A stretch of 64,000 bases of DNA from an uncultured Bacilli bacterium (GTDB taxonomy: Bacteria > Bacillota_I > Bacilli_A > RF39 > UBA660). Positions within the stretch are counted from its first letter, which is position 1, and each line of letters begins with the position of its first letter. Location: NCBI GenBank assembly GCA_934098435.1, contig CAKOOV010000002.1:22680-86679 (forward strand). Reading direction: 5' to 3'. Shown here piece after piece: positions 2,376 to 18,307 of the stretch. Below the pieces are notes generated by a model, which was not told the DNA's origin, searched no databases, and saw nothing but the letters and a program-made list of their open reading frames with translations. The translations under genes were made by a program, and so were the position numbers.

Positions 2376-5300
2376 CACCAATAATAATTATTATGTATAT
2401 AACTATAACAGTATTAAGTATCATTACATTTGGTATAAAAGGTTCATTAGTACTATTAATTATCTCACCATTACTAATTGTATATCTCAATTTAAATAGT
2501 ATAAATATAAAAAAGAAGAATATTGAAAAAAGAAATTTTAGAGAAAGAAAGGAAGTTGAATTTGTGAGTTCTAGAGATAGAAAAAAAGCTATTTCTGATG
2601 GTACAAAGAAAAAAGTACCTAAGAAAAAAACTACTACAAAAAGCAATAATAGTAGTAGAAAGAAAGAAAATAATAAAACTGAAAGAAAAAACAACACAAT
2701 AGGAAAAGAAAAATTTAAAGATAAAAGTATAGGAAGGAAAATCTTAATTATCATTTTAGGTTTTGCTATATTCTGTATTTTTGCAGCGGCCCTATTTATG
2801 CTATATATTGTTATAAGTACAGGTTCATTTGATCCTGAAGCCTTAAAAAATCAAGATCAAACAGTAATATATGATAAAGACAATAACGTTATAGCCACTT
2901 TAGGAGCCCAAAAAAGAGAATCTATTACTTATGATGATTTACCTCAAGTACTAGTAGATGCCCTTATAGCAACTGAAGATTCAAGATTTTACCAACACAA
3001 TGGTGTTGATACAGCAAGATTTATAAAAGCAACACTTCTTAATCTTGTAGGTCGTGATGATGCAGGAGGAGCCTCTACTCTTACAATGCAAACAGTAAAA
3101 AATAATTTAACAAAAAAAGATAGTACTGAGACAAATAAAATAAAGAAAATAGTAAGAAAATTTCAAGATGTATATTTATCTGTATTCTTCTTAGAAAAAA
3201 AATATACTAAAGATGAGATATTAGAAATGTATGTTAATGACAGTTGCCTAGGTGGAACAGTTTATGGAGTTGAAGAAGCTAGTAAATATTACTTTAATAA
3301 AAAGGTTTCTGAATTAAGCTTACCAGAAGCAGCATTATTAGCAGGTATGTATCAAGCTCCTAATAGATATAACCCATATAAAAATCCTGAAGCTGCAACA
3401 AAAAGAAGAGATACCGTACTAACATTAATGGTCAGACATGGATATATAACAGAAGAAGAAAAGAAAATGGCCGAAGACGTTAGTGTTGAAAGTATGTTAG
3501 CAGGTGGAGGAACACAAAGTGATTATCAAGGATACATAGATACAGTTATCGAAGAAGTAGAAAATAAAACAGGTAATAATCCAGCACAAGTATCAATGAA
3601 AATATATACCGCTATGGATAGAACAGTTCAAGACGGTATCAACAAAGTACTTAGTGGTGAAGACCATACTTGGGCTGATGATACAGTACAAGCAGGTGTT
3701 GCAGTTACTAATGTTAACGATGGTACCATTGTAGCCATAGGAGCAGGTCGTAATCGTAATGCTGGAGATTGGAATTACGCAACACAATCACGTAGACAAC
3801 CAGGAAGTACTGCTAAACCTTTATTTGATTATGGTCCTGGAATGGAATATAACGATTTCTCTACATATACCCTATTCAATGACGAACCATGGACTTATAC
3901 TAATGGTCCAGAAATAGGAAACTGGGATGGTAGTTATCAAGGATTAATTACACTAAGACAAGCACTTAGTGTATCAAGAAATATACCAGCTCTTAAAGCT
4001 TTCCAACAAGTAGATAAAAAGAATATTGTTACTTTTGTTAATAATCTAGGATTAGATGTTGCTTATAGTACAAAATCAGAAAACTATAAAAAAGATGAAA
4101 AAACCGGAGCAGATAACGTTATCAATGAAGCCTACTCCATAGGAGGTATGTCATATGGTGTTACACCACTAGACATGGCCGAAGCATATGCATCATTTGC
4201 TAATGGAGGATATCATATTGAAACCCATGCTGTAACAAAAATAGAATATAGAAGTACCGGAGAAACAGTAGATTTCACTGAAGAGAAGAAAAAAGTTATG
4301 TCAGATTCAACAGCATATCTTATGAACAACGTATTAAAATACGCTGTTGATTATGGATTCAATGGTGGAGCTAAAGTAGCCGGATCTACAGTAGCAGCCA
4401 AAACAGGAACATCAAACTTATCAGAAGCCACAACAAAAGCCCTAGGAATTCCTAGTAGTGCTGTTAACGACTTATGGACTGTTGCCTACACACCAGAATA
4501 CTCAGTAGCATTATGGTATGGATATGAAAAAGTCGATAGTAGTCACTATCTAAGTGGTGCTAGTGCTCCAAAGGATGCCGTTATGCGTTCAGTAATGAAA
4601 TATATACCAAAAACAACAAAAGAATGGGAAATGCCTTCATCAGTAGTGGCTACCACAGTTGAAAAAGAAACATGGCCAGCACAACTACCAAGTGAATATA
4701 CACCAAGTGACATGGTTATAACCGAATACTTTAAAAAAGGAACACAACCTACTGAAGTATCACAAAGATACGCCAAACTAGATGAAGTAACTAACCTATC
4801 AAGCACTAAAGCATCAGAAGGATATAAACTAACATGGAGTTGGAAAGAACCAGATGTACTTAGCTCAACTTACCTAACAAAATATTTTAGTAACTCAGTA
4901 TTTGGAAAAAGCTCTGCTAATTACTTACAAGCAAGACTAAACTATAATAGTAGCACACTAGGAGGAAACGGATTTGGCATATATGTAAAATCACATTCTG
5001 GTAACCTAGATAGAATTGCATTTACAGAAAAAACAGAATACATATACCACCCTACTACTAGTGGAAATATAGAAATAGTAGTAAAAGCCGAATATGGTAA
5101 TTTCAAAGCAAATGCTAGTAATGGTGTTTCAACAACAATTAATAGTACTGGTGGTAGTAGTTTAAATAGTGATAAATTAGAACTAACATTAAATGATAAT
5201 ACAACAAATTATAATAAAGGTTCTTTCAATGATTCAGGAATAAAAGTAACCTTTGAAGGCGAAGATGTAACAAATAGTTCACTAATAACATACAAACTAA

Positions 5301-13875: not shown

Positions 13876-15621
13876 CTATTTCTTATCCTCTATTTGTTTT
13901 TCTAACATAGATTTAAACTCTTCTAATGTTACAGTAGTACTATCATCACTACCAAACTTACGATAAGTAATAGTATTATTATCCCTTTCATTATTACCAA
14001 GTACTAAAGTATATGGTATCTTCTTAGTTTGAGACTCTCTAATCTTATATCCCATCTTTTCATCTCTAGAATCCAATTCAACTCTAAATTCATCACTTCT
14101 AAGTTCTTCAAGAACCTTATTAGCATACTCTAAATGATATTCATTATTAACTGGAATAATATTTATTTGTACTGGACTAAGCCATAATGGAAAAGCACCT
14201 GCATAATGTTCAATTAAAATACCGATAAATCTTTCTATTGATCCATAAATAACCCTATGAAGCATAACAGGTCTCTTTTTAGAACCATCCTTATCAATAT
14301 AAACCAAATCAAATCTTTCAGGTAAATTCATATCAAGCTGAATAGTACCACATTGCCATACTCTTCCCAAAGAATCTTTAATATGAAAGTCTAGCTTAGG
14401 TCCATAGAAAGCTCCGTCACCAGGATTAATCTTACATTCATGACCAGCCTTATTACAAGCATCCTGCAATGCTTTTTCTGATTTATTCCAGATTTCCAAA
14501 TCACCAATATATTTTTCTTCAGGTCTTGTTGATAATTCAATATCATAAGTTAATCCAAATATTTTATACATTCTATCAATAAAATTAATTAATCTTATAA
14601 CCTCTTCTTCTATTTGATCAGGTCTCATAAAAATATGAGCATCATCTTGAGTAAAAGTTCTTACTCTAAATAAACCATTTAAAGCTCCAGAAGCTTCATG
14701 TCTATGTACTTGTCCTAGTTCTCCTATTCTAAGAGGTAAATCTTTATATGAATGTAAAGAATTTTTATATACTAACATTCCACCAGGACAATTCATAGGT
14801 TTAATAGCAAACACTTTATCATCTATCTCACTAGTATACATATTTTCTCTATAATTATACCAATGACCTGATAACTCCCATAATTCTTTATTTAACATAA
14901 TAGGAGTCTTAACAAATTGATATCCTTCTTTAGTATGTTCTCTATACCAAAAATTTTCAAGTTCATTTCTTAGTATCATTCCTTTAGGCAAGAAGAAAGG
15001 AAATCCAGGTCCATATTCACTTATCATAAATAATTCCAATTCTTTACCCAATTTCTTATGATCTCTTTTTTTCGCTTCCTCAAGAAAATCTAAATGTTCT
15101 TTTAATTCTTCTTCACTTCTAAAACATACTCCATATATTCTCTGAAGCATCTTATTATTGGCGTCTCCCTTCCAATAAGCACCACTTACCTTAAGTAATT
15201 TAAAATATTTTAATTCCTTTACAGTATCAACATGAGGTCCTCTACAAAGATCAGTAAAATCTCCTTGTGTATAACAAGATATTACCGTTTCATTCTCATC
15301 CATTCTACTAATTAAATCTATTTTATATGGATCATCATGGAACATTTCTAAAGCCTCATCTTTAGATATTTCATGTCTTACAATCCTTTTACCATCCTTA
15401 GCAATCTTCTTCATTTCTTTTTCAATTTTAGGCAAATCCTCTTCTTTAATAACATCTTCTCCCAAGTCAATATCATAATAGAAGCCATCCTCTATTACAG
15501 GACCTACCCAAAATTTAGCATTAGGATATAAATGCTTTACAGCTTGTGCAAGTAAATGTGCACAAGAATGATTTAATTTACTTAAATCTTCATTTTCTTT
15601 AATATTTACCATATTTACCAT
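13876..15621 (-). CDS. thrS: threonyl-tRNA synthetase lacking the N-terminal TGS domain
   Basis: Begins at HSCAHLLAQ (N2 editing-domain start); class II catalytic and anticodon-binding domains present; in-frame stop 10 codons upstream of the ATG. Confidence 0.9.
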   Translation of the reverse strand: MVNMVNIKENEDLSKLNHSCAHLLAQAVKHLYPNAKFWVGPVIEDGFYYDIDLGEDVIKEEDLPKIEKEMKKIAKDGKRIVRHEISKDEALEMFHDDPYKIDLISRMDENETVISCYTQGDFTDLCRGPHVDTVKELKYFKLLKVSGAYWKGDANNKMLQRIYGVCFRSEEELKEHLDFLEEAKKRDHKKLGKELELFMISEYGPGFPFFLPKGMILRNELENFWYREHTKEGYQFVKTPIMLNKELWELSGHWYNYRENMYTSEIDDKVFAIKPMNCPGGMLVYKNSLHSYKDLPLRIGELGQVHRHEASGALNGLFRVRTFTQDDAHIFMRPDQIEEEVIRLINFIDRMYKIFGLTYDIELSTRPEEKYIGDLEIWNKSEKALQDACNKAGHECKINPGDGAFYGPKLDFHIKDSLGRVWQCGTIQLDMNLPERFDLVYIDKDGSKKRPVMLHRVIYGSIERFIGILIEHYAGAFPLWLSPVQINIIPVNNEYHLEYANKVLEELRSDEFRVELDSRDEKMGYKIRESQTKKIPYTLVLGNNERDNNTITYRKFGSDDSTTVTLEEFKSMLEKQIEDKK

Positions 15622-15916
15622 TCCTTTCCTTTGATTTCCTTTTCTTATTCATCTTCCTAATCTTAGTTTCTTTCTTAATTTCTCTTCTATATCCAAAACC
15701 ATCATTATCATAATAATGATCATTATTAACATAAATATTATACCTCATTCTAATATATCCATCTAATATTCTAATAGAATCAGAATTAGCACCGAACCAT
15801 CTTAATTCCTCTCTTAATTCTAATAATTCACTCAAATTCAAATCTAAAACACTTAAATACCATAAATAATCTCTATTACCCTGTACCTCTACTGGTACAT
15901 ATCCTTTAATATCCAT
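15599..15916 (-). CDS. 105-aa upstream ORF between the T-box terminator and thrS, unknown function, Lys-rich C-terminus
   Basis: Strong RBS AUAGGAGGUUAGU-AUG immediately after the T-box terminator; 23-nt overlap with thrS start in a different frame. Confidence 0.45.
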   Translation of the reverse strand: MDIKGYVPVEVQGNRDYLWYLSVLDLNLSELLELREELRWFGANSDSIRILDGYIRMRYNIYVNNDHYYDNDGFGYRREIKKETKIRKMNKKRKSKERNGKYGKY

Positions 15917-15945
15917 ACTAACCTCCTATAAATAAAAAAAGACCA

Positions 15946-16135
15946 CTTAAAGGAGAGAATACATCTCGGTACCATCCTTATTTGGTCTTAATTATGATAA
16001 CGGTTTTACCCGGTAATCTCTTTCGAGTACACTCAAAGGTAGTAATTATATATCCCTATTATTAGTTTACACCAACCACTAACTCTCTATAAATAAAATA
16101 TATATAATCATGTCCTTCTCATTGCTTTGAATATG
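15946..16135 (-). promoter_or_regulatory. T-box riboswitch leader (threonine specifier) with intrinsic terminator
   Basis: T-box sequence AAUAAGGAUGGUACCGAG (plus 15965..15982); ACU ACC in the specifier region; AGAGAG stem I motif; terminator AAGACCA...UGGUCUU plus U7 at 15946..16000. Confidence 0.8.
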
Positions 16136-16140
16136 AATAT

Positions 16141-16169
16141 ATTATATGACTATTTCTTTTTTTTGTCAA
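16141..16169 (-). promoter_or_regulatory. sigma-A promoter for the thrS leader (-35 TTGACA, 17-nt spacer, -10 TATAAT)
   Basis: Reverse complement of 16164..16169 is TTGACA and of 16141..16146 is TATAAT. Confidence 0.7.
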
Positions 16170-16172
16170 TAA

Positions 16173-16469
16173 CTATCTATTAATAATATCAATATTTGTA
16201 TAATCAGAATTAACATATTCAACTAATAAAGGTATATTAAACTTTGATATTCTCTTAATAAATTGTTCAAACAATATAGTAAATATATCAATTCTATATA
16301 TTAGTAAATCATCAATAACATTAATACCTATACTTTGCATATAATTAATAATTTTTAAAGCATCATCTTCATTACATGATAAATTAAATAATATCGCTTC
16401 ATTATTATTCTTCATCATCTCAATCAATGTACTATCACTTATATTTACCCTCTTTAAGAAATCAATCAT
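16173..16469 (-). CDS. hypothetical protein (98 aa), last gene of the four-gene orphan operon
   Basis: 4-nt ATGA overlap with the upstream 613-aa gene. Confidence 0.55.
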   Translation of the reverse strand: MIDFLKRVNISDSTLIEMMKNNNEAILFNLSCNEDDALKIINYMQSIGINVIDDLLIYRIDIFTILFEQFIKRISKFNIPLLVEYVNSDYTNIDIINR

Positions 16470-18307
16470 CTTCTAGCTACCCCTCTCAAATCCTTACCAT
16501 ATACTTTTTCTAGACAATCTTCTATATTTCTATATTGTTCTTCAGTTAAAATACTATTTTTACATATAGCATATTTTATTGCTCCCAAAGTACCTGCCAT
16601 ACGATTCTTAATTAAAGTTTCATAAATTCTAAGTACCTTATATCTAGAAATTATTACACCATTAAAATTATATCTTAAATCATCCATCTTATACTCTTCT
16701 ACTTTTTGAATAAAATAATTATTATAAGCAAGAATTATAGGGCCTGCATTTCTATTACTATTTACAACATCATCAAATCTAGAATCAAATGTAGGAATAT
16801 ATTGCCCTACTGATTCAACTTTATTGCTATCATTTAAATTAAATTCATTATTCTTATCATTAGAAATTGAACCCATAAATTGAACCTTCTGTGTTCTTCT
16901 CTTACTATAAATATCTTTATTCATTTGACTAGCTTTAACTATACGATAAAACATCAAATCATCACTTCTTTTATTAACATATGAGAAATTAGATAAAATA
17001 TATTCGTAGCAGCCAACCTCAATAAACTGATCAATTGAAGATAAAGGATCAACAGCCTGAAATGATGACAAAGTATTCTTATATATTTCTGAAGGTATTT
17101 TATAAAAATCAAAACTATCAAAATTTTCTTTTACTTTATTATAAGAAAGACAAAATACACTAGGACAATCTTTAATAATATTAGTAGGATCTATCCCTCT
17201 CGATATAAATAATTTCCTATTTTTAATATAATTATCATATGCTCCAGTTACATATTTTTTATCATCTGAATATAAACCATCTACTGTTTTCTTTTTGCCA
17301 CCAGATCTACTATTATAGTAAGCACGTTTACCATTAATAAATAACGATGGAAAATTTAAATACTTATTTAATAATTCAGTTAAAGAAACATTATAACTAT
17401 TACCTTCATTATCAATATATTTATTACAAGTACAATCATCCTTTAAATTACTCATAATACTTGATACTATATCCCCATTAGAATGTAATAATATCTGAAC
17501 TAGCTTACTACTATAACCTTTAATATATAAAGATACCCCGTTATCACTAAATACCCTCAAAATATCATTTATAGTAGACAAATTACCATACTTAAGTAAT
17601 TGTACTTTGTCTTTATTTTTAAAATCATCGAAATTATAATTATATTTATCAAATAAATCAAAAACATCAGATTCAGATAAATTAGTTTCTTCTAACAAAA
17701 TAACCTCTTCATCATCTTTATTTACCTTTATATTATTAATTAATTCCAACGATTTCAAAGATATATCTTGAATAATAGTCATTTGTTTATCAATAGATAA
17801 ATCAGATAATTTCAAATATAAAGCTATATTATCAATATCTAAAGAAGTTAAATAACCATTTTCACTATATAAATTACTAATCTTACCAATTAAATTTTCA
17901 ATAATTTCTATAGTACTTTTTCTGTCTTTAATATCTTCATTATTATCTATTAATAATTCTTTCTTACCATTCAAATCATTTATTATTCTATTAGTAATAT
18001 CCACTATTTCATTTTTTTGTTCCGTAGTTAAAGGAAAATAACTTAACATTGACAATTTTTTATACATTTCTAATTTATTAATAATATTTATATCAAAATC
18101 AGATAAGACTTTCTTTAACTCTTCTATAGATAAATCACTTATTTTTATCGGATTATCTAATACTGAAAATAAATTATTTAATAAACTATTAAAAGAAAAT
18201 AATAATTTTAATTCTATATTATTTATATCCTTCAATTGACTATTTTTAACTAGTTTTAAAGTATTTATTATTTGTTCTTCCATTTTATCACTTCCTAATT
18301 TTATCAA
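16466..18307 (-). CDS. hypothetical 613-aa protein, N-terminal half coiled-coil-like (I/L/K/E/D/N-rich), no recognisable catalytic motif
   Basis: Long ORF in AT-rich DNA; overlaps neighbours (20 nt and 4 nt). Confidence 0.65.
   Translation of the reverse strand: MIKLGSDKMEEQIINTLKLVKNSQLKDINNIELKLLFSFNSLLNNLFSVLDNPIKISDLSIEELKKVLSDFDINIINKLEMYKKLSMLSYFPLTTEQKNEIVDITNRIINDLNGKKELLIDNNEDIKDRKSTIEIIENLIGKISNLYSENGYLTSLDIDNIALYLKLSDLSIDKQMTIIQDISLKSLELINNIKVNKDDEEVILLEETNLSESDVFDLFDKYNYNFDDFKNKDKVQLLKYGNLSTINDILRVFSDNGVSLYIKGYSSKLVQILLHSNGDIVSSIMSNLKDDCTCNKYIDNEGNSYNVSLTELLNKYLNFPSLFINGKRAYYNSRSGGKKKTVDGLYSDDKKYVTGAYDNYIKNRKLFISRGIDPTNIIKDCPSVFCLSYNKVKENFDSFDFYKIPSEIYKNTLSSFQAVDPLSSIDQFIEVGCYEYILSNFSYVNKRSDDLMFYRIVKASQMNKDIYSKRRTQKVQFMGSISNDKNNEFNLNDSNKVESVGQYIPTFDSRFDDVVNSNRNAGPIILAYNNYFIQKVEEYKMDDLRYNFNGVIISRYKVLRIYETLIKNRMAGTLGAIKYAICKNSILTEEQYRNIEDCLEKVYGKDLRGVARR

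Follow-up and report, generated by a model that had tools for sequence, protein, structure and literature searches.

A small-protein gene between a threonine T-box leader and a TGS-less thrS in an Erysipelotrichales-like bacterium

We investigated the thrS locus in a 64,000-nt stretch of contig CAKOOV010000002.1 (the whole stretch is called the window below); all features of the locus are read on the minus strand. The locus probably represents a two-gene operon of an uncultured low-GC Erysipelotrichales-like bacterium, in which a 105-aa protein and a threonyl-tRNA synthetase (ThrRS) without a TGS domain are placed under a threonine T-box. At the sequence level, comparison with the loci of relatives (given L-numbers, such as L001) shows that promoter, T-box, open reading frame (ORF) and thrS form a compact unit and have been conserved as a whole. 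Neither T-box control of thrS nor a ThrRS without TGS is new, so the core of this finding is ordinary. What is new is a small-protein family, not described before, that is stably wedged between a T-box and a synthetase gene, and the repeated landing of genes in the slot between leader and thrS within the TGS-less clade.

The T-box leader, the 105-aa ORF and its family

The locus opens with a sigma-A type promoter (TTGACA-17-TATAAT, 16169..16141) that matches the consensus at 12 of 12 positions and is unchanged in relatives L001-L005. A Thr-specific T-box leader follows (16131..15948), aligning with the full length of the Rfam model RF00230 (model positions 1-219; 88.7 bits, E-value 7.7e-20). 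The model alignment places the specifier codon ACU at 16043..16041, and the next base, an A, supplies the purine expected there (ACU plus A, 16043..16040). This A is followed by CC, and the adjoining ACC is a Thr codon too. The T-box sequence AAUAAGGAUGGUACCGAG, with its UGGUACC bulge, lies at 15982..15965, as read from the sequence and the RF00230 alignment. Specifier and T-box sequence are both kept in 10 related leaders, and nucleotide identity of the leader in L001-L005 is 95-99% per 100-nt block. Other Rfam families gave chance-level matches alone in the leader and the ORF. We also considered a translational T-box that sequesters the Shine-Dalgarno (SD) sequence, and set it aside: just a 5-6 bp CUCCU:AGGAG pairing is possible, and it is missing from the minimum free energy (MFE) fold.

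The ORF (15916..15599) encodes a basic protein of 105 aa and starts 17 nt downstream of the U-run that ends the leader. Its SD sequence AGGAGG (15927..15922) stands 5 nt upstream of the ATG and is kept in L001-L005, L086, L088, L092, L094, L096 and L097. At the local composition, a stop-free stretch of 105 codons has a probability of about 3e-4, which together with the in-frame codon score excludes that the ORF is open by chance; its codon usage scores 0.95 bits/codon, against a median of 0.85 for the long genes of the window, and the score is negative in all five other frames (-0.4 and -1.4 in two of them). Five full-length homologs (74-97% identity) share its synteny and have no frame-disrupting indels or stops, although one of them (P0002) has an in-frame deletion of 6 aa. 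Compared with the L001-L003 lineage, the synonymous divergence (dS) is 0.32 both for the ORF and for the first 160 codons of thrS, whereas the ORF has a ratio of non-synonymous to synonymous divergence (dN/dS) of 0.38-0.43, against 0.06-0.09 in those thrS codons. By these divergence estimates, the ORF is under purifying, relaxed selection. It is present in more than 20 independent samples, and no paralogs were found elsewhere in the window. The comparisons support a genuine, fast-evolving protein gene, not described before, that is predicted to be co-transcribed with thrS and is tightly juxtaposed to it. A first-pass annotation of this DNA had proposed the sigma-A promoter, the T-box leader with an ACU/ACC Thr specifier, and a 105-aa ORF with a strong ribosome-binding site overlapping thrS by 23 nt in another frame, and all of these were borne out.

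The junction with thrS is as compact as the rest of the locus. The synthetase gene (13876..15621) encodes 581 aa from the ATG at 15621, or 578 aa from a second ATG at 15612, and a purine-rich SD-like tract, AAGGAAAGGA (15631..15622), lies within the 3' end of the ORF. The second ATG is likely the true start because AAGGAAAGGA stands 9 nt upstream of it and the residue it encodes corresponds to the first one in most TGS-less relatives. The two in-frame starts come from a 9-nt tandem duplication, ATGGTAAAT ATGGTAAAT, at 15604..15621, which also gives the ORF its C-terminal GKYGKY. The stop codon of the ORF (TAA, 15601..15599) lies 23 nt inside thrS if the gene starts at 15621 and 14 nt inside if it starts at 15612, and it arises from the conserved thrS codons AAT ATT AAA (ATT-AAA) read out of frame. 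The initiation region of thrS is unstructured (-5.5 kcal/mol, z -0.14), and we found no RNA structure masking the start in a way that would enforce coupling.

Together these elements suggest a mode of expression. The consensus promoter would drive the T-box leader with its ACU specifier, accumulation of uncharged tRNA-Thr would lead to read-through past the U-run, and both proteins would then be induced together. Translation of thrS would start from its own accessible SD, probably with a further contribution from ribosomes that have just finished the ORF at its TAA.

The family profile was used in a HMMER scan of 1.84 billion cluster representatives. At a cut-off of E<1e-3 it matched 24, mostly along nearly the whole profile and 84-105 aa long except for a 65-aa fragment and a spurious 1321-aa match. 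A second profile search raised the family to 42 clusters of 84-122 aa. A scan of metagenomes with a subset alignment of the family found 3 loci only. The N-terminal module of about 58 aa is conserved (YIPVxV...WYLDVSNLSLSELIxLRKEL.G...SIRVLDGII, with P8, W19, L31 and L34 invariant in the alignment) and is followed by a variable linker and a Lys/Arg-rich helix; conservation as a protein extends down to about 28% overall identity. An AlphaFold2 model built from the family alignment (mean predicted local distance difference test, pLDDT, 75) has a beta-hairpin at residues 6-22, helices at 28-41 and 45-59, and a long basic helix at 73-101. Pfam-A, NCBIfam and PHROGs gave nothing consistent across the 24 members, the best match of a profile search against the PDB had an E-value of 0.2, and Foldseek found no match at E<=1e-3 in the PDB or BFVD. 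One member stands apart: P0048 (122 aa, L100 1950..2318) overlaps an opposite-strand gene on a Gram-negative-like contig that also carries genes for LptC, CNNM and TPR proteins, and may reflect a chimeric contig or a spurious call.

Most family members with enough flanking DNA have the same arrangement as the window: a Thr T-box, about 50 nt, a strong SD, the ORF and a TGS-less thrS. This arrangement is found in about 10 lineages, namely the window and L006, L001-5, L086/87, L088, L092/93, L094/95, L096, L097, L099 and the divergent L024, which matches the family hidden Markov model (HMM) at E 1.7e-7. The T-box sequence in these carriers is GAUGGUACCGAG (GAUGGUACCACG in L096), and ORF and thrS are separated by at most 5 nt or overlap by up to 23 nt. 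Identity of the ORF among the thrS-linked carriers falls to about 30%, while that of the ThrRS N2 domain is still 87-96%, which suggests that the two genes have long been passed on together by vertical descent, with the ORF evolving fast. The search for the ORF in relatives that the first-pass annotation had recommended thus yielded homologs in the same slot and a family of about 42 clusters.

Loss of the TGS domain

The ThrRS of the window contains the Pfam domains tRNA-synt_2b, HGTP_anticodon and tRNA_SAD (E-values 7e-46, 3e-22 and 9e-16), and no Pfam match to TGS (PF02824) was found in it even at E<=1. Residues 3-578 align with residues 58-633 of E. coli ThrRS (545 bits), so that the N1 domain alone is missing, and residues 8-577 align with residues 65-639 of S. 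aureus ThrRS (621 bits). The editing motifs HSCAH and CRGPH are retained. An in-frame TGA (15651..15649) closes the thrS frame at the 10th codon upstream of ATG 15621. The first-pass annotation had read the enzyme in the same way, as starting at the N2/editing domain with TGS absent and a stop 10 codons upstream.

To place this in a wider context, we scanned one genome per GTDB species and took the best 80 thrS loci; a ThrRS 99% identical to that of the window belongs to 'uncultured Tenericutes bacterium UMGS610'. In about 40 of these 80 loci the frame is closed 1-24 codons upstream of the homologous start. The TGS-less set includes Longibaculum muris, Faecalitalea cylindroides, Erysipelothrix anatis and many metagenome-assembled genomes of uncultured Bacilli and Tenericutes, as well as a complete chromosome, that of Allobaculum mucilyticum. 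The N-terminal extension of about 55 residues is kept in Izemoplasmatales, Acholeplasma, Anaeroplasmataceae, Bacillus, Clostridia and Fusobacteria. Pfam gave the TGS-less architecture in five relatives and recovered TGS in an Izemoplasmatales positive control (L034, E 3e-9). Judging from these alignments, the loss of TGS is genuine, ancient and common to an Erysipelotrichales-like clade of Bacilli, and is no sequencing artefact. Aligning the ThrRS of relatives, as had been recommended, therefore showed that TGS is missing clade-wide (about 40 species loci), and with a clade-wide loss no frameshift revealed by resequencing would restore the domain.

We also considered whether genetic code 4 would reopen the thrS frame, and rejected this: TGA is a stop in this genome (code 11), where it ends 7 of the 50 long ORFs, and thrS has eight TGG codons. 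Under table 4 the frame still closes further upstream at TAA/TAG, and the translation is not TGS-like.

Bacterial ThrRS that naturally lack TGS and have about 565-585 aa are known from Mollicutes. The TGS-less enzymes of Mollicutes and Erysipelotrichaceae have the same order of domains (N2/editing, class II core, anticodon-binding) and start a few residues before HxxxH. The architecture of the window ThrRS is alike, to which it adds an apparently recombinant catalytic core. Our literature searches turned up neither a report of a ThrRS clade without TGS nor one of a T-box separated from thrS by an ORF.

What the small protein may do

The slot between leader and thrS is permissive. The T-box could be recognised in 34 loci of TGS-less species; thrS lies 33-85 nt past the T-box sequence in 15 of them, and in the other 19 an interval of 200-1200 nt holds an SD-equipped ORF that nearly always ends at or inside thrS. 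Loci with an extra ORF include L007, L009, L012-L014, L017, L018, L022, L024, L027, L029, L046, L052, L053, L057, L067 and L080. The occupants include GNAT acetyltransferases (L017, L018), a dUTPase (L022) and MBL-fold hydrolases (L057, L067), as well as short helical ORFs of 56-69 aa and a modular uncharacterised family of 148-267 aa. Because the slot accepts such different genes, position alone does not tie the window protein to ThrRS. We tried to unite the slot ORFs in one superfamily and rejected this, as an hhalign comparison between the window family and the short helical ORFs gave a probability of 1%; beyond L024, there is a marginal match of the family HMM to L013 (E 1e-3 in a small database). 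Many slot ORFs share 'KY'-type tails at their C-termini, which come from the conserved thrS start (ATG GTA AAT ATT AAA) read out of frame, and take their TAA from its ATT-AAA. In most TGS-containing relatives, the spacing is consistent with thrS directly behind the leader.

Members of the family are also found away from thrS. Four lie directly upstream of heat-shock genes: htpG in L089 (member at 2498..2776), L091 (1800..2114) and L098 (3001..3339), and hsp20 in L090 (54..356). Three of the four (L089, L090 and L098) have their own recognisable sigma-A-like promoter. A CIRCE-like inverted repeat, TTAGCAAT-N11-ATTGCTAA, lies between the member and the heat-shock gene and overlaps the -35 element of the latter. 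These contexts hint at a more general role for the family.

What could such a protein do behind a T-box? It is possible, but far from probable, that it works with ThrRS or tRNA-Thr, even counting the case of a dedicated partner. That special case, in which the protein is a dedicated, co-evolved partner of the TGS-less ThrRS (a trans-acting RNA-binding subunit co-regulated by the T-box), is unlikely. A partner of this kind would have arisen after the clade lost its N1 domain, with the N-terminal module docking and the Lys/Arg helix acting on tRNA-Thr or on the thrS leader. RNA binding by the basic C-terminal helix is speculative. At least as likely as any work with ThrRS or tRNA-Thr is a general function, in nucleic-acid binding or in stress, for a small protein that in this lineage simply borrows the promoter of thrS. 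Basic tRNA-binding helpers of synthetases are well known, such as Arc1p, Trbp111 and the lysine-rich helical appendices of eukaryotic AspRS and LysRS. The resemblance is a functional analogy only, to a small polypeptide with a long Lys/Arg-rich helix that is co-expressed with a synthetase; the window protein shares no sequence or fold similarity with these helpers, and its family also has members away from thrS. Should the protein prove to bind its synthetase or tRNA-Thr, bacteria would offer a rare case of a synthetase cofactor controlled by the same tRNA sensor as its enzyme.

Several observations weigh against a T-box-controlled operon of a small protein and its synthetase. The leader scores about 4 bits short of the RF00230 gathering score (88.7 against 93 bits), which is why a scan of the window at the gathering threshold left the T-box unreported, and its enclosing terminator (described below) gives no account of how tRNA prevents termination. 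The ORF, with a dN/dS of about 0.4, is under relaxed constraint, and its thrS-linked carriers are all uncultured metagenome assemblies. Unrelated genes occupy the same slot in other TGS-less species, and the four members beside heat-shock genes have no T-box.

Could the ORF instead be a regulatory upstream ORF (uORF) or a spacer? In that case its translation would matter, either through coupling to the thrS start or through modulation of the terminator, and the sequence of its peptide would be largely irrelevant. The geometry is suggestive, as the ORF begins 17 nt past the U-run and ends within thrS, the junction is tight in all carriers, and the non-homologous ORFs in the slot of 19/34 TGS-less loci nearly all end at or inside thrS; its relaxed constraint and variable C-terminal third also fit. 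However, protein-level conservation of the first 58 residues persists in members as little as about 28% identical overall, with four invariant positions, and the family has stand-alone genes beside htpG or hsp20, three of the four with a recognisable promoter of their own. The SD and start of thrS lie in unstructured RNA and need no unmasking, and about half of the TGS-less relatives have thrS straight after the T-box. The ORF also has just one Thr codon. We therefore regard a regulatory uORF as improbable. A leader peptide of the trpL or rtpLP type that senses amino acids was rejected: such ORFs are short (about 10-40 codons) and enriched in codons for the sensed amino acid, and this one has 105 codons, one of them for Thr; Thr-sensing attenuation by the ORF is not expected from a single Thr codon. 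Of the proposal in the first-pass annotation that this is a leader protein or a regulatory uORF, the real, conserved protein gene stands, and the leader peptide or uORF does not, given the single Thr codon, the conservation, the promoters elsewhere and the SD of thrS itself.

The at operon of B. subtilis offers a comparison for this arrangement. It reportedly has a Trp T-box, then rtpLP, with 10 codons of which three are for Trp and acting by ribosome position, and then rtpA, which encodes anti-TRAP (work by Chen and Yanofsky). As in that operon, a T-box in the window precedes an ORF that runs into the initiation region of the gene behind it, which stacks the signals for transcription and translation. 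Unlike rtpLP, the window ORF has 105 codons, one Thr codon and a conserved protein sequence, and the SD downstream is unmasked.

The ORF also sits in the exact place of the TGS-coding segment, between T-box and N2, and could in principle be a split-off, highly diverged N1/TGS domain that reassembles with ThrRS as a separate polypeptide. Its N-terminal module of about 58 aa is close to the length of TGS in relatives (54-58 aa), and the AlphaFold2 model opens with a beta-hairpin and then a helix. But when the family profile was compared with a profile of 14 TGS sequences, hhalign gave a probability of 0.7%; Pfam TGS was unmatched at E<=0.1 in all 24 family members, and tblastn with the 14 TGS domains found nothing upstream of any TGS-less thrS. 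The model as a whole, a hairpin plus three helices, is not a beta-grasp fold, Foldseek matched it to neither TGS nor a ubiquitin-like fold, and the family has members at loci other than thrS. A split TGS domain is thus very improbable. The first-pass annotation had alternatively suggested an ancient N-terminal rearrangement. The loss of TGS is indeed ancient; the tie between the ORF and the lost domain did not hold up, as shown by the hhalign probability, the missing tblastn remnant and the lack of a beta-grasp.

Finally, the window comes from the assembly of an uncultured organism, and a frameshift or mis-assembly of a metagenome bin might in principle have split a TGS-containing thrS. The architecture recurs in about 40 assemblies made independently, some of them from cultured isolates and one a complete chromosome, which makes an artefact of this kind barely conceivable; no upstream reading frame is TGS-like, and the ORF recurs in more than 20 independent samples.

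The terminator and a probable recombinant core of thrS

The leader ends in a terminator-like hairpin with a U7 run (15934..15989; MFE of the fold -16.4 kcal/mol). In its bottom helix, AAGACCA (15989..15983) pairs with UGGUCUU (15945..15939), next to the U7 run (15940..15934). This helix encloses the antiterminator, which consists of helix A1 (AAGGA:UCCUU), the UGGUACC bulge and helix A2 (GAGA:UCUC). It is the sole helix abutting the U-run in the window group, and it has no strand in common with the antiterminator; mutually exclusive terminator and antiterminator helices were sought in the window leader and not found. In a comparison of 10 leaders the AAGACCA:UGGUCUU helix is 97% paired, and L096 contributes 2 compensatory pairs. 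The nested terminator is also present in L001-5, L086, L088, L092, L094, L096 and L097. Related leaders have two other arrangements (L010, L029 and L046; L016, L007 and L013), both mutually exclusive, and that of L010, L029 and L046 is the canonical one. The terminator proposed in the first-pass annotation is thus present, with its hairpin and a U7 run ending at 15934. It is not a canonical competing hairpin; instead, it encloses the antiterminator.

The nested terminator may represent a distinct switching geometry for T-boxes, in which tRNA binding would block a helix made from the linker between Stem III and the antiterminator, instead of stabilising an antiterminator that competes with the terminator. 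We infer that the stacking of Stem III under helix A1 in the tRNA-bound discriminator would be incompatible with a paired linker strand AAGACCA. For T-box researchers probing how the discriminator domain decides on termination, this is a natural variant.

The thrS and thrZ leaders of B. subtilis are said to undergo tRNA-Thr-dependent antitermination (work by Putzer, Grunberg-Manago, Condon and Henkin). The window leader resembles them in its sigma-A promoter, its Stem I with a Thr specifier, its T-box with the UGGUACC bulge, its U-run and its predicted control of thrS. Unlike them, the window has a 105-codon gene before thrS, an enclosing terminator helix, a shortened Stem II and a TGS-less enzyme.

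The synthetase gene itself is a mosaic. A segment of thrS encoding the catalytic core (about 14195..15130) appears to come from another lineage than its flanks, judging from nucleotide and amino acid identity to relatives. Nucleotide identity of the core is 50-70% to L001 and L094, whereas the flanks (N2 and anticodon-binding) are 90-100% identical to L001. Likewise, the core shares 47% amino acid identity with these nearest relatives, against 93-96% for their N2 and 78-94% for their C-terminal domains, and it is 91-92% identical to the cores of L007, L009 and L010. The clade has two core types, joined to N2 domains that share 82-85% identity. The second type resembles S. aureus ThrRS (497 vs 318 bits to 1NYQ) and occurs in all other carriers of the small ORF with a readable thrS core. 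From these core and flank identities, and from the second core type in the other carriers, the window species looks like a domain-precise recombinant, and the core types appear to be shuffled by recombination in the clade. Such a domain-precise swap would clearly illustrate how an essential synthetase can recombine in modules in nature. The loci compared for the core were L001, L094, L007, L009, L010 and L055.

Upstream of the thrS promoter, the genes at 16173..18307 (minus strand) and beyond encode proteins of 98 aa and 613 aa and, in relatives, of 605-664 aa, for which no Pfam domains were recorded. These upstream genes are syntenic in L001-L005 (152..4744).

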